Below the pieces are notes generated by a model. It was given only the letters and a program-made list of their open reading frames with translations. It made no database searches and was not told the DNA's origin. Shown piece by piece: positions 1 through 4,156 of a stretch of DNA of 19,750 bases (position 1 is its first letter; the number at the start of each line of letters is the position of its first letter). The position numbers and the translations under genes are program-made. Origin of the DNA: Thermoproteota archaeon (lineage in GTDB: Archaea > Thermoproteota > EX4484-205 > JAAOZP01); NCBI GenBank assembly GCA_049700215.1, contig JBNAVT010000007.1, positions 54,172 through 73,921 on the forward strand, written 5' to 3'.

Positions 1-396
1 GCTCGCCGGTGAATGTACCGTCAAGCCTCCGTGATATCGTAAAGGAGGAGGGTCTTATGCTAATGACTTTTTATCTACGACTTCTTCGAGGAGTTCGTTG
101 CCCCTGAACGGGACCCACTTGCCGTCTTCCAACTTGACGAAACCCACAAGGGTTCCGTCGGGGAGGAAATCAAGGGGCTTCTCCATTTTAACAACCTTCT
201 TACCTCCGATGTTTTCGATCAAAACGTCTCCCTTGAGCAGCAGCTTCCTGCCATCCTCCAATTTTATGAATGATACTGGTTCTCCATTCGGCAGCCGGAA
301 GCGGAAATCTCCCTCTAAGACCTTCATGCCCTGAGCCTCATCTATAACCTTGTCCCCGACGAAGGGGAGCCTTCTATCATCCTCTAGGATGACGTC
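1..396 (-). pseudogene. Truncated, frameshifted tandem-repeat protein (about 42-aa repeats, LEDG...PF.G...I....G.KV...LPDG)
   Basis: ORF 55..327 is open upstream to a TAG inside the palindrome at 397-408 (RALDVILEDDRRLPFVGDKVIDEAQG-MKV...), with no ATG between the palindrome and 327. It has three repeat units. A frameshift at the T5 run (68-72) continues the repeat as KKVISIRPSSFTISRRLDGTFTGE to the window edge. Confidence 0.65.
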
Positions 397-408
397 TAGC
401 GCGCGCTA
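397..408. repeat. Perfect palindrome TAGCGCGCGCTA (junction 1)
   Basis: Read directly; identical copy at 1554-1565. Confidence 0.95.
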
Positions 409-424
409 CCGAACACTATATGAA

Positions 425-454
425 TGTACACGTCTGTACAACAACATTTAAAAA
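425..454 (+). promoter_or_regulatory. TGTACA-N4-TGTACA candidate operator followed by TATA-like TTTAAAAA upstream of the dehydrogenase
   Basis: TGTACA at 425-430 and 435-440; TTTAAAAA at 447-454; purine-rich GGAGG-like leader before ATG 499. Confidence 0.45.
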
Positions 455-498
455 TCCTTCTCTAGGCCGCTTGGAAAGGTGGAAGGAGCGCTGGAGAA

Positions 499-1413
499 AT
501 GGTGGAGAGTAAGCCTAAGGTCCTCGTGCTTGACAGCTTTGACCAAGAGTTTTTCGAAAGGCTCAAAGAGTATTGCGAGGTTTTGAACGAAACCCGTATG
601 GGTGAGGCTGAAATACTTATAGTCAGGAGCAACACTAGGGTTGACAGGCAGTTCATATCCAAGCTTCCGAACCTTAGGCTTGTAGTGACTGCTACGCACG
701 GCGAGGACCATATTGATAAGCAGGCCCTGGCGGAGCGGGGGATAGAGTGGCATACTGCTCCTGTTCAAAGCTACGATGTTGCGCAGAGCGTGATGGCCTA
801 TGTTTTCGCATTCGCGACGAACATGGTTATCGCGGACAGGTCTATGAAGAGAGGCGAGTGGAGAAAGAGCGAGCTCATAGGTTTTAGGGTGGAGGGTAAA
901 ACGCTTGGAATAATAGGCTATGGGCGTATAGGGAGAGAGGTTGCGAGGCAGGCTCTGGCGAACGGCTTAAGGGTAATCGTCTACGAGAAGGATGCTAAGG
1001 CCAAGATTGAGAACAGACTTCCTATACGGTTTGCCGAAACCCTTGAGGAACTTCTTTCGAACTCTGATATAATCACGATCCACGTTCCCCTAACGGAGGA
1101 AACCAAGGGGATGATCGGTGAACGCGAGTTGGCGATTGTTAAGGACGGGGTCTTCTTGATAAACACTGCTAGGGGAGGGATTGTAGACGAGGAAGCATTG
1201 TTAAAAGCATTGGAAACAAATAAGCTCGCGGGCGCGGCTCTGGACGTTTTCCATCATCAACCTCCCTTATTGAACAATTGCTCCGAGAAACTTGCGTGCC
1301 ACGAGAAAGTTATTGCATCACCCCACAGCATAGCGCAAACAAGAGAGGCTTTAAGGCAGAAGGGGGAAACTGTGCTTAAAATAATTAAGGAATACGTAAG
1401 CCTAAAGATTTAA
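499..1413 (+). CDS. D-isomer-specific 2-hydroxyacid dehydrogenase (short SerA/PGDH-like, NAD-binding)
   Basis: IVRS motif, GKTLGIIGYGRIG Rossmann motif, ITIHVPLTEETKGMI, INTARGGIVDE, AALDVF, SPH; no ACT domain. Confidence 0.92.
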   Translation: MVESKPKVLVLDSFDQEFFERLKEYCEVLNETRMGEAEILIVRSNTRVDRQFISKLPNLRLVVTATHGEDHIDKQALAERGIEWHTAPVQSYDVAQSVMAYVFAFATNMVIADRSMKRGEWRKSELIGFRVEGKTLGIIGYGRIGREVARQALANGLRVIVYEKDAKAKIENRLPIRFAETLEELLSNSDIITIHVPLTEETKGMIGERELAIVKDGVFLINTARGGIVDEEALLKALETNKLAGAALDVFHHQPPLLNNCSEKLACHEKVIASPHSIAQTREALRQKGETVLKIIKEYVSLKI

Positions 1414-1553
1414 TATCGTAAATCTCAGGGAACATGGGTATTAGAAGCAGATTTACCGGGTTTCTTGCGAGGAATAATCTGATTCCAGGAGGTTGGGCGG
1501 AGGAAAAGCGCGAGCGGTGTTGGAAGGCTTTTTAACGACGTGTACCACATGCT

Positions 1554-1565
1554 TAGCGCGCGCTA
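1554..1565. repeat. Perfect palindrome TAGCGCGCGCTA (junction 2)
   Basis: Read directly; sits exactly where homology to the intact FUN14 gene stops. Confidence 0.95.
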
Positions 1566-1783
1566 TGAGAAAAGTAGCTGAGGAGTATGGGAGCACGTTT
1601 TGAAGGCTTCCGCCCAAGTCTATTACCCTAGGCAGGAACTCCATAGCCCTGTCGAAAACGTCTTGAGCGCGCGCACCAGCGTTATGGCGTGCTTAATTAT
1701 GAGGCCTACTAGAAGCCCGATGATGAACGGGACGACCACTGGAACAATCCAGGCGAACTAGGGGGGATAGTCACGCCGGACGC
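1565..1783 (-). pseudogene. Degraded copy of the FUN14-family membrane protein gene at 2971..3273
   Basis: 1565-1616 is identical to 3002-3053. The start codon is lost (CAT replaced by CGC at 1781-1783). There is a 1-nt deletion near 1759, a net 52-nt internal deletion at 1666-1672, and the 3' end is missing. Promoter 17-mer GTTTAAAAAGTTAGCGT is conserved (1806-1822 vs 3296-3312). Confidence 0.9.
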
Positions 1784-1848
1784 CTTTAGACAGAAGCTTA
1801 AACCCGTTTAAAAAGTTAGCGTCGCAGCCAGGCTCCAAGACACGCGTG

Positions 1849-2277
1849 CTAGCGTGAACCGCCTTCACCGCCGCCGATCCAGACTACTTCAGGCCTCTCC
1901 TTAAAATGCTCATCGCCAGTAATAAGGCTCGCGTCAAGAACCTTCGCCACAGCCAAGACTATCGCGTCGAAAAGACCCGGTTCCCCTAATCCGGCTTTCC
2001 TAGCGTTTTCCCTGAGCTCGTAATCCATTTCCGCGGCTTTAACAGCCACATTCTTATCCACCGGCACTATTCTCGACAGCTCGGAAACCTTGGAAAGCCG
2101 CGCCTCCGTGGTATGTGCCTCAACGCGTTCCCTACGATACTTTCGGGCGAGCTCCGCCAGGACGATGTCAGGAGTATATACTTCGTCAGCTGAGCTAAGC
2201 TTCTCCTTGACAAGCCTCCCTTTCTCGCTGCCTATGAAAAGCTCAACCCAAGCATAGGAGTCAACCACGATCCTCAC
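1849..2277 (-). CDS. vapC: PIN-domain ribonuclease toxin VapC
   Basis: N-terminal IVVDSYAW (DS/DT motif), VLAE, GLFDAIVLA, LITGDEHF acidic PIN residues; overlaps the small upstream gene. Confidence 0.92.
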   Translation of the reverse strand: MRIVVDSYAWVELFIGSEKGRLVKEKLSSADEVYTPDIVLAELARKYRRERVEAHTTEARLSKVSELSRIVPVDKNVAVKAAEMDYELRENARKAGLGEPGLFDAIVLAVAKVLDASLITGDEHFKERPEVVWIGGGEGGSR

Positions 2278-2461
2278 CGCGATCCTCCTCCGTGAAAGGC
2301 TTTATTCTTCCCTTATCCGCCCCAAAAACCTCTTCAAGCATCCTCCGGCGCCTTTCCAGGAGAAACCTTCTTATCACTTCCTCCACGCTTTTAGCCTTCA
2401 TAGTTTCTCTTAAAGCCTCCAATTCCTCTAGTGTTGAACGGGATACTTTTATCGTGCTCAT
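2261..2461 (-). CDS. vapB: VapB-type antitoxin (ribbon-helix-helix-like N-terminus)
   Basis: 66 aa, MSTIKVSRSTLEELE...SVEEVIRRFL, acidic tail; 17-nt overlap with vapC. Confidence 0.85.
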   Translation of the reverse strand: MSTIKVSRSTLEELEALRETMKAKSVEEVIRRFLLERRRRMLEEVFGADKGRIKPFTEEDRGEDRG

Positions 2462-2463
2462 TC

Positions 2464-2493
2464 TACCTTATACTTTACACTTTATACTTTATA
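2464..2493 (-). promoter_or_regulatory. Four tandem 7-bp repeats (TAAAGTA consensus on minus strand) spanning TATA box to start of vapB
   Basis: Plus strand TACCTTA TACTTTA CACTTTA TACTTTA at 2464-2491; minus-strand CTTATAAA TATA-like box about 30 nt above the ATG. Confidence 0.7.
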
Positions 2494-2620
2494 AGTTTTT
2501 GCTGGCGCGTTTTACTGTATTCTCAGAAATTCCAGCGTTTTTCGAAACGACTCTAACGTTTTCCGAAAAGGCATTCGAGGAACCCGGTGCGCTAGAGGGA
2601 GAACTGTTTGCTCAGGAAGC

Positions 2621-2653
2621 GGGGTGCCGAGTACTAGTTGCGGCAAGCACCCC
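2621..2653. other. GC-rich stem-loop of unknown role
   Basis: GGGGTGC (2621-2627) pairs with GCACCCC (2647-2653); alternative inner pairing TGCCG/CGGCA. Confidence 0.4.
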
Positions 2654-2677
2654 TTGACAGAAGGATGAGATGCGCGC

Positions 2678-2924
2678 GCTTCAGGGTCCAGGGTAAGACG
2701 CTCGGCATAGTGGGCTACGGGCGTATAGGGAGGTTGCTAGACAGGCTTTAGCGAACGGCCTGAAAGTAGTCTACGATAAGGATCCCGAGGCTAGGCTTGG
2801 AAACAAGCCGCCCGTGAGGTTCGCCGAGACGCTTGAGGAGCTTCTTTCAAGCTCCGACATAGTCACGATACATGTTCCCTTGACTGGTGAAACCAGGGGC
2901 TTAATCGGCGAGCGCGAGCTGGCT
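2678..2924 (+). pseudogene. Internal fragment of a second D-2-hydroxyacid dehydrogenase gene (homologous to about 881-1134)
   Basis: Encodes FRVQGKTLGIVGYGRIG...VRFAETLEELLSSSDIVTIHVPLTGETRGLIGERELA with a 4-nt and a 3-nt deletion; both ends cut at (GC)n tracts. Confidence 0.92.
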
Positions 2925-2970
2925 TCTGCGCGCACTATGCGAGAAGCCTCGTTAAAAATTTCTGCTCTCC

Positions 2971-3273
2971 CTACCCTTTCCAAAGCCCGAGCAGCAGCCC
3001 GATGAGAAAAGTAGCTGAGGAGTATGGGAGCACGTTTTGAAGGCTTCCGCCCAGCTCAACAACCTTCGGCAGAAGCTCCATAGCCCTGTCGAAAAGGTCT
3101 TGGAAAGTCAGGCTAACGTAGCCCGTGGCCACGAGTATTATGATCAGTATGAGGAGGGCGAGCACCAGTGTTACGGCGCGCTTAATAATTAGGCCTACTA
3201 GAAGCCCGATGATGAACGGGACGACTACTGGAACAATCCACGCGAGCTCCGGTGGGATAGTGACGCTAGGCAT
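2971..3273 (-). CDS. FUN14-family small membrane protein
   Basis: 100 aa hydrophobic protein with G..G..IK(R/K) first helix, GY(V/I) after helix 2, and C-terminal F..G..LG..KG typical of archaeal FUN14 (COG2383) proteins. Confidence 0.75.
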   Translation of the reverse strand: MPSVTIPPELAWIVPVVVPFIIGLLVGLIIKRAVTLVLALLILIIILVATGYVSLTFQDLFDRAMELLPKVVELGGSLQNVLPYSSATFLIGLLLGLWKG

Positions 3274-3367
3274 CTTGAAGAGAAGGTTTAAACATGTTTA
3301 AAAAGTTAGCGTTAGCATCGTGCTGCTGCAAGCCAGCAGGGTTTGGGGCAAACGCTTGTTAAGCCTG

Positions 3368-4156
3368 CTAGACGCGTAGGAGGAAGTCGTAAACAGCCCC
3401 CTTAAGCATCATCCTCTCGAAAACCTCGGAGCGGCTTGCCTTAAGCACAACAGGCTTCACGCGGCCGCCGAAGCCGAGCAGCCCCCCGGAGTAGACGACA
3501 CAACCCTCCACGCCTCTTATTGAAAGAGCCAGCTTCACAGCCTCCTCCAGGGATTCTCTGCAACCCGATTTCACGCTGTTTCCCACGCGGGTTGAAACCG
3601 CGTCGGCAAGCGCAGCGTTCTCAGCCACAACAACGGCGGCGTCAGCATCCCCAAGGGAGAGGGCGTGGCTAACGCTGCTTGAGCTCGTGGACACTCCTAT
3701 TGCTCCCCGGGAGCCGTCGAGAATGAGCCCAAGGTTAAGCTCCCTGCCCGTGTAGACTCCAATAAGGGCTTCCCTGCTCGTCCTCATGGAAACCTCCCCG
3801 CCGTTTTCAACTATCACGGTCTCACCCCCGTGTTTAAGCATGGCTTGCAAAACCGTGTCGGCGAGAGCGCCTGGGAGCGCAGCCATCGGCCCGACGCCAG
3901 CCTTTATCGAGGCTTCTACGGCTGCCTTAACCACGGCTGGGGCCTCCTCGTCTGGCTTAACCGGCTCAAGAGTGTAGAGGAACCCGGGGTGTTTCTCAAC
4001 ATAGGTCTGGACAGTCTCCCTCGCCTCTATGAATCCTTTCAAGCCGGTGCTTATTATGGAAGCCTGCTCGCACGCTAAAAGAAGGTCCGCCTCCCTATAT
4101 CTAGTCCTCATGTAGAAAAGGCCGTTTCTAAACTCGAGGACTGTTTGGCTCTTCAC
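3368..4156 (-). CDS. UPF0280 / COG2122 ApbE-superfamily protein (sulfide-assimilation associated)
   Basis: GVGPMAA, IVENGGE, TSS..V.H..SLG.ADA, ALADA motifs; operonic with DUF39 and NIL-ferredoxin genes. Confidence 0.88.
   Translation of the reverse strand: MKSQTVLEFRNGLFYMRTRYREADLLLACEQASIISTGLKGFIEARETVQTYVEKHPGFLYTLEPVKPDEEAPAVVKAAVEASIKAGVGPMAALPGALADTVLQAMLKHGGETVIVENGGEVSMRTSREALIGVYTGRELNLGLILDGSRGAIGVSTSSSSVSHALSLGDADAAVVVAENAALADAVSTRVGNSVKSGCRESLEEAVKLALSIRGVEGCVVYSGGLLGFGGRVKPVVLKASRSEVFERMMLKGAVYDFLLRV

Follow-up and report, generated by a model that had tools for sequence, protein, structure and literature searches.

A recurrent A(GC)nT palindrome at deletion and rearrangement joints in an archaeal genome: candidate scars of DNA end rejoining

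Short (GC)n tracts occupy the joints of broken genes in the genome of a hot-spring archaeon of the Thermoproteota, whose genus probably belongs to the Brockarchaeota, and are absent from the corresponding intact alleles of its relatives. We favour the view that these tracts represent scars of non-homologous rejoining, which leaves one fixed self-complementary filler, and assign a probability of roughly 0.55 to this reading. The original prediction of a sequence-specific deletion or end-joining footprint was derived from the window, i.e. the whole 19,750-nt stretch of DNA that was analysed, and it holds and extends genome-wide as well as across lineages. In the following, G000 denotes this genome, which is an 85-contig metagenome bin, and G002 its closest relative.

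Five junctions in the window

Five junctions (J1–J5), each placed on a (GC)n tract by the original prediction, were all recovered by alignment to paralogues and relatives. As had likewise been stated, the octamer GCGCGCGC is present at four of them (positions 399–406, 1556–1563, 1667–1674 and 2672–2679) and has no further copy in the 19,750 nt, as compared to 0.41 copies expected; a count of four was reached in 2 of 200 shuffles. The scar at J1 (397–408) reads TAGCGCGCGCTA and fuses a truncated minus-strand gene to the upstream region of a dehydrogenase gene. This truncated gene (55–396, minus strand), formerly labelled a repeat protein and without a Pfam family, lacks its 5' part: copies in G007 and G006 run past J1, and in the alignment the homology to them ends at ...GACGTC. 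From the end of TAGCGCGCGCTA and CCGA onwards, the sequence matches the DNA upstream of the dehydrogenase gene in G008. The adjoining intact D-2-hydroxyacid dehydrogenase gene (499–1413, plus strand; 2-Hacid_dh_C, E 1.2e-54) shares 85% identity with G008 and 81% with G002 and is, judged by these identities, a foreign-looking allele. At J2 (1554–1565), the same 12-mer TAGCGCGCGCTA recurs, in agreement with the earlier observation of two identical junction 12-mers, and fuses the dehydrogenase 3' flank to a 3'-truncated FUN14-like copy. Homology to FUN14-like genes begins directly past the tract, and G003 is collinear from the dehydrogenase to position 1558.

The resulting FUN14-like pseudogene (1564–1760, minus strand) is cut off at J2 and carries an internal deletion at J3 (1665–1676, GAGCGCGCGCAC), where the tract stands in for 52–62 nt that are kept in G007, in G010 and in the intact paralogue. 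The inserted segment further contains a minus-strand pair (1849–2461) of genes for VapC (PIN; 1849–2277) and a VapB-like protein (RHH; 2261–2461), an arrangement that is also found in G007 and G010. J4 (2670–2681, ATGCGCGCGCTT) forms the left end of a fragment of the native dehydrogenase allele (2680–2927, plus strand; 90% identity to G002), and homology (90%) to the intact dehydrogenase gene of G002 begins directly past GCGCGCGC. At J5 (2928–2937), a degenerate filler, (G)CGCGCACTA with GCGCGC at 2928–2933, is present in place of ~315–380 nt that G002 retains. Downstream follows the intact, native FUN14-like gene (2971–3273, minus strand), which is 91% identical to G002 and matches Pfam FUN14 over the full length yet below threshold (E 0.019). 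No Rfam family was detected in positions 1–4000 of the window.

Further support for the junctions comes from assembled Logan contigs. Contigs of run X1, which possibly is the source sample, span J1, J2, J3 and J5 with zero differences, and the contig across J4 extends just 28 nt to the right side; a further X1 contig, contig 4, was rejected as a joint, as it stems from the intact paralogue, which aligns to the pseudogene. In run X2, which derives from another sample and another study, one contig spans J1. Taken together, J1–J5 are genuine deletion or rearrangement joints with a (GC)n tract that is absent from the intact alleles of relatives.

The palindrome genome-wide and across lineages

Free-standing (T)A(GC)4-5T(A) palindromes amount to ~220 copies in G000. 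The form AGCGCGCGCT was observed 118 times (1.6 expected) and TAGCGCGCGCTA 35 times (0.07 expected), and the series A(GC)nT with n = 3–7 comprises 53, 118, 33, 2 and 2 copies. As compared to these numbers, the controls T(GC)4A and A(CG)4T occur twice each, and counting of maximal runs yielded 166 (GC)4 versus 10 (CG)4. Exact (GC)4 runs are preceded by A at position -1 in 138 of 165 cases and followed by T at +1 in 137 of 165, and T at -2 and A at +2 are each present at ~55% of the sites. Past ±2, no conserved base was detected around the exact runs (n = 165), palindromic symmetry at offsets 3–8 equals background (42–52 of 200 sites), and the two sides behave independently, TA being present on both of them at 63 of 200 sites. 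The k-mers of the flanks reflect general AT-richness, with neither a target motif nor extended common flanks, and direct repeats indicative of target-site duplications were not above controls at any length. Mixed-half joints such as AGCGCCGCGCT occur 0–1 times. Simple arithmetic on the genome counts shows that GCGCGC apart from the motif copies is close to its expected number.

The sites avoid long ORFs: only 16% of 274 fall within reading frames of 200 aa or more, as compared to 77% for randomly placed positions and 82% for the remaining 8-mers made of G and C. They are also clustered, with 53 of 214 gaps (25%) shorter than 500 bp when 6% are expected. Multi-copy families in their vicinity include giant secreted proteins, AAA_14/DUF4143 ATPases, wHTH-nucleotidyltransferases and orphans, and no transposase is among them. 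Approximately 100 copies carry a single mismatch, for the most part a transition. Thus, the palindrome accumulates in dispensable DNA and decays through transitions, and its length and phase are fixed.

Comparison with relatives revealed that homology ends at the motif at 13 of 24 informative sites as compared to 872 of 16,688 random positions (5%; p ~3e-11); for 23 of the 47 sites in these blocks, relatives offer no homologous DNA close by, so that the sites are unclassifiable. Within G000, paralogy ends at the motif at 26 of 90 sites having a paralogous match versus 7 of 121 controls. An even frequency of GCGCGCGC on and off breakpoints, named at the outset as a refuting observation, was hence not seen. 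At the positions of the filler in G000, relatives or paralogues have 0–3, 2, ~18, 50, 52–62, ~60, 161, 175, ~315–380, 369 or 476 nt, and the DNA replaced in these two-sided events contains open reading frames. The near-pure insertions amount to +9 nt at L017:17338 and to -2/+10 nt at L018:19062. In a small sample of ~10 two-sided events, 0–2 nt of the A/T edges of the filler match native flank bases.

The claim that a tract marks every breakpoint stands for J1–J5 but is not true of all joints elsewhere. Of 10 unique deletion joints in the compared blocks, seven contain a tract of at least three GC units, a share that is biased upward because these blocks were picked for motif density; one further joint has a variant with one transition and two joints have no tract, as is the case for one ~1.8-kb deletion in G002. 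At L020:2195, G000 and G002 each have a GC tract in front of the same right-hand flank, but the left partners differ. A single site, degenerate in both genomes, is shared between species, namely with G002, and 0 of 41 motif sites in the loci of relatives are shared with G000. In sum, intact alleles are free of the tract, homology breaks off at its edges, and relatives have ordinary coding DNA there.

Expansion of the motif is patchy. It was found in a subclade of the host genus, in some Bathyarchaeia and in two further Thermoproteota lineages. G142 contains 30 motif versus 0 control copies and G105 22 versus 0, with flanks as in G000. The expanded genomes come from other habitats as well, and those of Bathyarchaeia include a complete single-chromosome assembly. 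Such patchiness points to an agent that moves horizontally.

Possible origins of the filler

In the reading that we favour, broken DNA would be rejoined without homology, leaving the consensus (T)A(GC)4T(A), or less often (GC)5, at the joint. Such rejoining could result in a near-pure insertion, in the loss of several hundred bases or in the fusion of unrelated or foreign segments. The filler presumably arrives as a single in-register unit: either both 3' ends may gain an identical self-complementary A(GC)n tail and the tails anneal, or a self-annealed oligonucleotide may be ligated between the ends. The filler would overlap with the flanks by 0–2 nt, and the joint would then be completed by filling of the gaps and ligation. 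A start with a 5' purine and a length of ~10 nt would resemble a primase product. We know of no polymerase reported to write a fixed sequence of 8–10 nt in an untemplated manner. Of the routes offered by the original prediction, two are compatible with the data: breaks may gain a GC tail that is self-complementary, or the ends may be joined through microhomology or template switching. The former fits better because length and sequence of the filler are constant and the flanks are not copied. Going beyond the scar itself, we tentatively propose a dedicated, horizontally spreading end-joining system, which would write the A(GC)nT adaptor and thereby make any two ends cohesive and ligatable. Its writer could be the primase-polymerase AEP2 described below or a similar enzyme, possibly together with RadA2, or a functional analogue where AEP2 is absent, and synthesis would be programmed in sequence without a conventional template. 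No description of the scar was found in the literature covered, with subscription journals outside this coverage; the full-text matches listed for AGCGCGCGCT are primer or construct sequences, and a search for GCGCGCGC together with archaea and deletion returned unrelated papers only.

The strongest competitor, which we nevertheless regard as unlikely, is an ultra-short mobile palindrome that inserts in dispensable DNA, whereupon recombination between neighbouring copies deletes DNA and leaves one copy. The near-pure insertions at L017:17338 and L018:19062 and the patchy distribution among lineages would fit such an element, and, as 25% of the gaps are shorter than 500 bp, close insertion pairs are not rare. 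There is also a precedent in the GC clusters of yeast mitochondria, which are described as palindromic, mobile and horizontally transferred (PMC4478555). However, target-site duplication is at chance level with nothing conserved past ±2 nt, and a unit of 8–12 nt is far below the size of any known mobile palindrome. In addition, the intact alleles of relatives show no motif bordering the deleted segments on either side, each deletion would demand two earlier insertions plus recombination, and the joints to unrelated or foreign segments at J1, J2 and J4 are not accounted for.

Clearly less probable is an excision footprint, be it of a cut-and-paste transposon with TA target and GCGC... termini (TA+GCGC|GCGC+TA) or the fusion scar of a hairpin-ended replicon. 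The 12-mer TA-GCGC-GCGC-TA indeed has the form known from Tc1/mariner-type elements, with T at -2 and A at +2 in ~55% each. Yet a search for GCGC-ended pairs spaced 150–6000 nt apart revealed no intact element and one weak match, no multi-copy transposase family was detected among 1,855 ORFs, and the flanking TAs are independent of each other, occurring together at 63 of 200 sites. Moreover, the flanks are not contiguous in empty sites because coding DNA, up to 476 nt, was lost. Mobile-element excision, another of the options considered at the outset, is thus disfavoured by the missing intact GCGC-ended element, the lack of target duplication and the loss of coding DNA. Since symmetry ends at ±2, fused hairpin telomeres are argued against as well.

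It is even less plausible that the palindrome is a functional site for protein binding, regulation or uptake, which is under selection and merely coincides with variable DNA. Abundance, palindromic symmetry and a preference for intergenic DNA are typical of binding or uptake sequences, but 0 of 41 sites are shared between species and the sole shared one is degenerate in both genomes. Copies lie within broken genes and at homology breakpoints, they decay by transitions, congeners manage without them, and the compared blocks contain no orthologous conserved sites at promoters or terminators. We give slightly less credence still to pre-existing (GC)n tracts that are fragile or promote recombination (Z-DNA, a BssHII-like enzyme) and at which DNA repeatedly breaks and is rejoined. 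The tract at L020:2195 with its different left partners in G000 and G002 would fit re-breakage at an old scar, and such secondary events are conceivable; as an origin, however, cutting and rejoining at prior GCGCGC or Z-DNA sites is contradicted by intact alleles that are tract-free at the informative junctions and by a near-expected number of GCGCGC elsewhere, and it leaves unexplained where the tracts come from. Finally, an assembly or library artefact placing a GC linker at chimeric joins, as might be suspected from an 85-contig metagenome bin whose best-covering run is possibly its own source, has next to nothing in its favour, given that independently built contigs reproduce the joints, one of them from another sample and study, that long ORFs are avoided, that the copies decay by mutation, that one site was inherited in two species, and that the expansion recurs in genomes of other habitats, including a complete single-chromosome assembly.

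Ku (PF02735), a search for which had been advised along with LigD, was detected in 0 of 31 genomes including G000, with the control search being positive in Bacillus subtilis; reverse transcriptase (RVT_1) was likewise found in 0 of the 31 genomes. Prim-Pol (PF09250) is present in G002 only, which leaves the distribution of the motif unexplained, and most genomes carry two genes for ATP-dependent ligases, the copy number of which is uncorrelated with the motif. Several candidates were dropped: KaiC/RadA-like paralogues common to an island of G142, which are widespread archaeal proteins; a NurA-like/HerA-like pair adjoining RadA2-AEP2 in G000, which does not track the motif, with a copy in G011 but none detected in G008; and ORFs in L017:5131–7137, whose reading as defence-gene fragments was withdrawn as they match no Pfam family. 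No enzyme could be tied to the scars, and AEP2 is the leading, if doubtful, candidate.

AEP2 (G000:C17:241–1062) is an orphan, compact PriS-like primase-polymerase of 273 aa, encoded directly after a second RadA paralogue (RadA2). It matches PF01896 with E 1.6e-7 and remains below cut-off for the LigD-type primase-polymerase domain PF21686 (E 0.25). All 20 family members keep the AEP motifs I (DxD), II (SGxGxH) and III (D..R), and 19 of them also the Zn-knuckle cysteines. Foldseek returned PriS as best matches (TMq 0.56–0.62), with NHEJ polymerases being more distant. As a canonical PriS of 377 aa is also encoded, AEP2 is a second, shorter copy, which misses ~85 PriS residues between motifs II and III. 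Its motifs and fold assign it to the AEP superfamily, distinct from the replicative PriS, which is the single universal orthologue and pairs with PriL. Among eight motif-rich congeners, AEP2 is full-length in six and a pseudogene in a seventh, and none was found in nine motif-poor congeners, an association within the genus that may simply reflect shared ancestry; moreover, the variable islands that contain the scars also contain AEP2. All five Bathyarchaeia with an AEP2 homologue have excess motif over control copies (40/1, 45/2, 11/4, 53/8 and 74/1). However, when five motif-rich Bathyarchaeia were picked blind to AEP2, it was absent from all of them, just as from five motif-free ones; a necessary role of AEP2 was hence rejected. 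AEP2 was also not found in the motif-rich genomes G010, G142 and G105, and G023 carries a distant homologue without expansion of the motif. The link to RadA2 is not general either because RadA2 does not adjoin AEP2 in the Bathyarchaeia loci. Thus, the connection of AEP2 to the scars is only correlative, and one prediction derived from it failed.

Significance and comparison with known systems

To our knowledge, Ku-type end joining is mostly missing in archaea and their homology-free end joining is poorly known. If the tracts are repair scars, G000 itself logs hundreds of rejoining events under a constant tag, which makes these events countable and datable, and most medium-sized gene-destroying deletions as well as many joints to foreign DNA in these lineages would go via one pathway. 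A sharp biochemical question is thereby posed, namely that of the writer of A(GC)4T. An enzyme adding a fixed self-complementary adaptor would represent a new repair principle and possibly a tool for DNA assembly, and a fixed-adaptor system would constitute a new class of repair or genome-reshuffling machinery that leaves a readable record of past breaks. A mobile element of 10 nt, in turn, would be the smallest known. On either reading, genomes of Brockarchaeota, Bathyarchaeia and other Thermoproteota can be screened with the motif as a practical marker of pseudogenes, of islands and of rearrangements of recent date.

Excision of Tc1/mariner-IS630 elements leaves a TA-flanked palindromic scar that is short and constant. 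In contrast, no intact element, multi-copy transposase family or target duplication was detected for the joints described here, and flanking DNA is lost; fusions of protelomerase hairpins differ in that no inverted repeat extends past the core here. Bacterial REP elements are GC-rich palindromes of ~20–50 nt that form stem-loops and go with a RAYT (Y1) transposase. Yeast mitochondrial GC clusters are described as stem-loop units of similar length (~20–50 nt) with putative target duplications (PMC4478555). Both resemble the present motif in that GC-rich palindromes are scattered over non-coding DNA of higher AT content, differ in occurrence between lineages and are associated with rearrangements, but the unit found here has 8–12 nt, is loopless and duplication-free, and mostly replaces host DNA.

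Canonical NHEJ relies on Ku and LigD, and neither Ku nor a LigD-type domain was detected here. End-joining activity is also ascribed to enzymes of the AEP type, such as LigD PolDom and the pAgo-associated AgaPP with terminal transfer and MMEJ (PMC11724360), and the E. coli IS-excision enhancer IEE has been linked to genomic deletions (PMC9943667); none of the three is known to leave a fixed sequence. With these AEP end-joining enzymes, AEP2 shares the catalytic motifs, the fold and approximately the size of PolDom, but it is PriS-like rather than PolDom- or PrimPol-like and adjoins a RadA paralogue, with no Ku, LigD or helicase partner found. Finally, SD-MMEJ of the Pol theta type is reported to take its insertions from adjacent DNA as a template, and these vary from joint to joint (PMC2943611). 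Similar to the joints described here, it combines variable deletion with a short insertion and is independent of Ku; the overlap of 0–2 nt between filler and flank, seen here in a small sample of events, may be a further parallel. Unlike in SD-MMEJ, the filler reported here is constant at hundreds of joints and absent from the flanks.

Joints in the window

To begin with the joints themselves, the 8-mer GCGCGCGC, which the original prediction had placed repeatedly at breakpoints, occurs four times in the window (starts at 399, 1556, 1667 and 2672) as compared to 0.41 expected occurrences, a count reached by 2 of 200 shuffles, and GCGCGC is present at position 2928. The identical 12-mer TAGCGCGCGCTA was likewise recovered at two joints (397–408 and 1554–1565). 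Self-comparison of the window revealed two paralogous pairs, 883–1133 with 2680–2923 and 1565–1822 with 3002–3312. Base-level alignments confirmed that the joints are genuine: at every joint the tract is the precise point at which homology stops, and it is missing from the intact alleles. Away from the junction region, four isolated GCGCGC hexamers are found (3176, 12404, 14513 and 16715); the hexamer at 3176 is part of the native coding region of the intact FUN14-like gene, whose pseudogene copy reads GGCGTGC at this place.

Logan contigs of sequencing run X1 bridge joints J1, J2, J3 and J5 with zero differences, and they also bridge J4, where one side is covered by 28 nt. Run X1 is possibly the source sample and therefore not independent; J1, however, is also bridged by a contig of run X2, which represents a different sample and study. 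Because contigs from X1 and X2 bridge the joints, an artefact of bin assembly is ruled out. After position 449, in the region upstream of the dehydrogenase, the X2 contig contains an additional A, which represents strain variation between samples.

Relatives in the same genus carry one of two simpler gene orders at this locus, either dehydrogenase – FUN14-like – X (the closest relative G002 as well as G006, G008, G009, G010 and G013) or dehydrogenase – FUN14-like' – VapCB – X (G007 and contig C113 of G010). The window is a composite, in which a foreign-looking segment comprising dehydrogenase, FUN14-like' and VapCB adjoins remnants of the native allele. The foreign-looking dehydrogenase is 85% identical to G008 and only 81% to G002, whereas the remnants, a dehydrogenase fragment and the intact FUN14-like gene, are 90% and 91% identical to G002, respectively. 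The two alleles have different nearest relatives, G008 and G010 for positions 409–2671 (85%) versus G002 for positions 2680–3700 (90–91%), and it is the former segment that carries the VapBC pair.

The motif in genomes and at breakpoints

In the genome from which the window derives (G000; 2.09 Mb, 85 contigs), AGCGCGCGCT occurs 118 times as compared to 1.6 occurrences expected from dinucleotide content, and the 12-mer 35 times as compared to 0.07. Maximal (GC)4 and (GC)5 runs number 166 and 51, whereas the (CG) phase yields only 10 and 4; T(GC)4A and A(CG)4T, which serve as controls for flank and phase, are each found twice. The length distribution of A(GC)nT is peaked rather than geometric: from n = 3 up to n = 7, the counts are 53, 118, 33, 2 and 2. 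Among 165 runs, A precedes in 138 and T follows in 137, while T at −2 and A at +2 are present in 89 and 92, respectively; palindromic symmetry ends at ±2, and no conserved bases were detected beyond. In the 400 nt around the sites, base composition is shifted towards AT (46% GC versus 49%), and flanking direct repeats are not above chance. Neither an intact element with GCGC termini in G000 nor, in an all-against-all comparison of its 1,855 ORFs, a multi-copy transposase family was found.

Source names of close homologues point to a probable placement of the genus in Brockarchaeota. Eight of its genomes contain 118, 88, 70, 33, 32, 18, 16 and 6 copies of AGCGCGCGCT, and nine others contain 0–3. 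Clear expansions outside the subclade, among 301 genomes of the phylum, are seen in G142 (30 versus 0 for the reversed control), where flanks and clustering of the motif match those in G000, and in G105 (22 versus 0). Within one family of Bathyarchaeia, the motif reaches 10 or more copies, and no less than five times the control, in 9 of 41 genomes, and many genomes have none.

Breakpoints are marked by the motif. Of the 274 alternating runs with a length of 8 nt or more, only 16% fall within ORFs (stop-to-stop, at least 200 aa), as compared to 77% of random positions and 82% of other G/C-only 8-mers, and 53 of 214 inter-site gaps are below 500 bp (6% expected). Of the 90 sites with any paralogous match in the genome, 26 have a match ending no more than 6 nt from the motif, as compared to 7 of 121 random controls. 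When five motif-dense 20-kb blocks of G000 were compared with five congeners, 24 of 47 sites had homology within 25 nt (versus 83% of random positions taken from these blocks), and 13 of these 24 informative sites coincide with the end of an HSP, versus 5.2% of random positions (p ~3e-11). At most of the remaining informative sites, alignments run across the motif, which forms a local insertion or replacement within them; the others are native coding sequence that reaches (GC)4 by point change and has non-A/T flanks. In two-sided events, the relative or paralogue has 0–3, 2, ~18, 50, 52–62, ~60, 161, 175, ~315–380, 369 or 476 nt at the place where nothing but the filler is present in G000, and the replaced DNA was ordinary open reading frame in the three cases inspected.

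The original prediction that every breakpoint carries a tract does not hold throughout: a tract of at least (GC)3 is present at 7 of 10 unique deletion joints in the compared blocks, two joints are bare, and one has AGCGCGTGCT, one transition from the motif. As high motif density was the criterion for selecting the blocks, the share of 7 in 10 is an upper estimate. A deletion of ~1.8 kb in G002 (locus L225, G002:C47:17590–17816) is likewise clean, without GC filler.

A stretch of contig C19 (L017:5131–7531, corresponding to G000:C19:26503–28903) has six motif sites in 2 kb, two of them translated in frame as 'SARAI', among ORFs of 127–280 aa that matched no Pfam family and showed no DNA homology in five congeners. 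In addition, G000 encodes a family of 20 paralogous giant proteins, secreted or membrane-located and up to 1,683 aa in length (e.g. C1:89595–94646 and L017:8937–12413); for 75% of its members a motif site is no more than 1 kb away, versus 26% of all ORFs.

Candidate enzymes

Searches for the responsible enzyme did not find Ku, reverse transcriptase or Prim-Pol, and ligase copy number was uninformative on the motif. A search with the primase profile PF01896 returned the universal PriS of 377 aa and, only in motif-rich congeners, a second AEP of 258–299 aa. This orphan PriS-like primase-polymerase (AEP2; G000:C17:241–1062) is encoded outside the window. Direct and profile searches found AEP2 full-length in G000, G002, G006, G007, G008 and G013, and in none of the nine motif-poor congeners, nor in G010; the G009 copy is a fragment riddled with stops. 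Just before AEP2, and overlapping it, lies RadA2 (in G000 split across contigs, C59:5559–6308 and C17:39–257), a paralogue 50% identical to housekeeping RadA (G000:C1:936–1862), and this two-gene module is present in six congeners. Extra AEP2 fragment copies are themselves bounded by GC tracts. L225 is the orthologue of the RadA2–AEP2 locus of G000; AEP2 is reduced there to its final ~40 codons, and an intact module resides elsewhere, on contig C43 of G002. The AEP2 family is very small, with 42 members among 5.8 billion proteins, each of them annotated as hypothetical. The catalytic motifs of the family are conserved, and the structural model of AEP2 (pLDDT 81) is nearest to archaeal PriS, NHEJ polymerases being more distant.

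In all five Bathyarchaeia with an AEP2 homologue, the motif exceeds the control (40/1, 45/2, 11/4, 53/8 and 74/1). However, AEP2 is absent from five of five motif-rich Bathyarchaeia picked by motif count only (G322, G326, G335, G341 and G342), as from five of five motif-free ones, G142 and G105 have canonical PriS only, and G023 shows no motif expansion despite a distant homologue. AEP2 is therefore ruled out as a necessary factor; common descent, or the location of both in variable islands, may account for the association with the motif.

Next to RadA2, in divergent orientation, are the genes of a NurA-domain protein of 599 aa and of a HerA-like ATPase of 595 aa that is itself divergent (G000:C59:1747–5336, minus strand); the two do not track the motif. 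The NurA-like protein has a 77% identical copy in G020, a member of another family, and is patchy in the genus, which suggests horizontal transfer. In both G008 and G002, AEP2 is immediately followed by a HEPN and minimal-nucleotidyltransferase pair (L176:3846–4752; L177:2952–3882), and G008 has a Y-family polymerase gene upstream of RadA2.

Origin of the tracts and known systems

Taken together, the tracts are best read as scars of non-homologous joining in which one fixed, self-complementary filler is placed at the joint. How this filler would be synthesized we can only infer. The main rival is a mobile palindrome of 10 nt that inserts and whose copies subsequently recombine, which explains the near-pure insertions as well as the clustering of sites, but accounts neither for joints that connect unrelated DNA nor for the lack of intermediates and of target duplications. 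The filler behaves as a single unit and a neutral scar: unequal-half joints such as AGCGCCGCGCT occur 0–1 times, tandem copies are absent, and the sites have no extended flanks in common. Approximately 100 copies have one internal mismatch, mostly a transition, and a site orthologous in G000 and G002 is degenerate in both. Loci of relatives totalling 0.73 Mb contain 41 motif sites, not one of which G000 shares. The tracts are thus generated continually, undergo decay and are not conserved.

No known family passed its membership tests, and no published description of the motif was found in the literature searched by its sequence. The known systems considered for comparison were SD-MMEJ (PMC2943611), AgaPP (PMC11724360), IEE (PMC9943667) and the GC clusters of yeast mitochondria (PMC4478555), together with PMC5862659.
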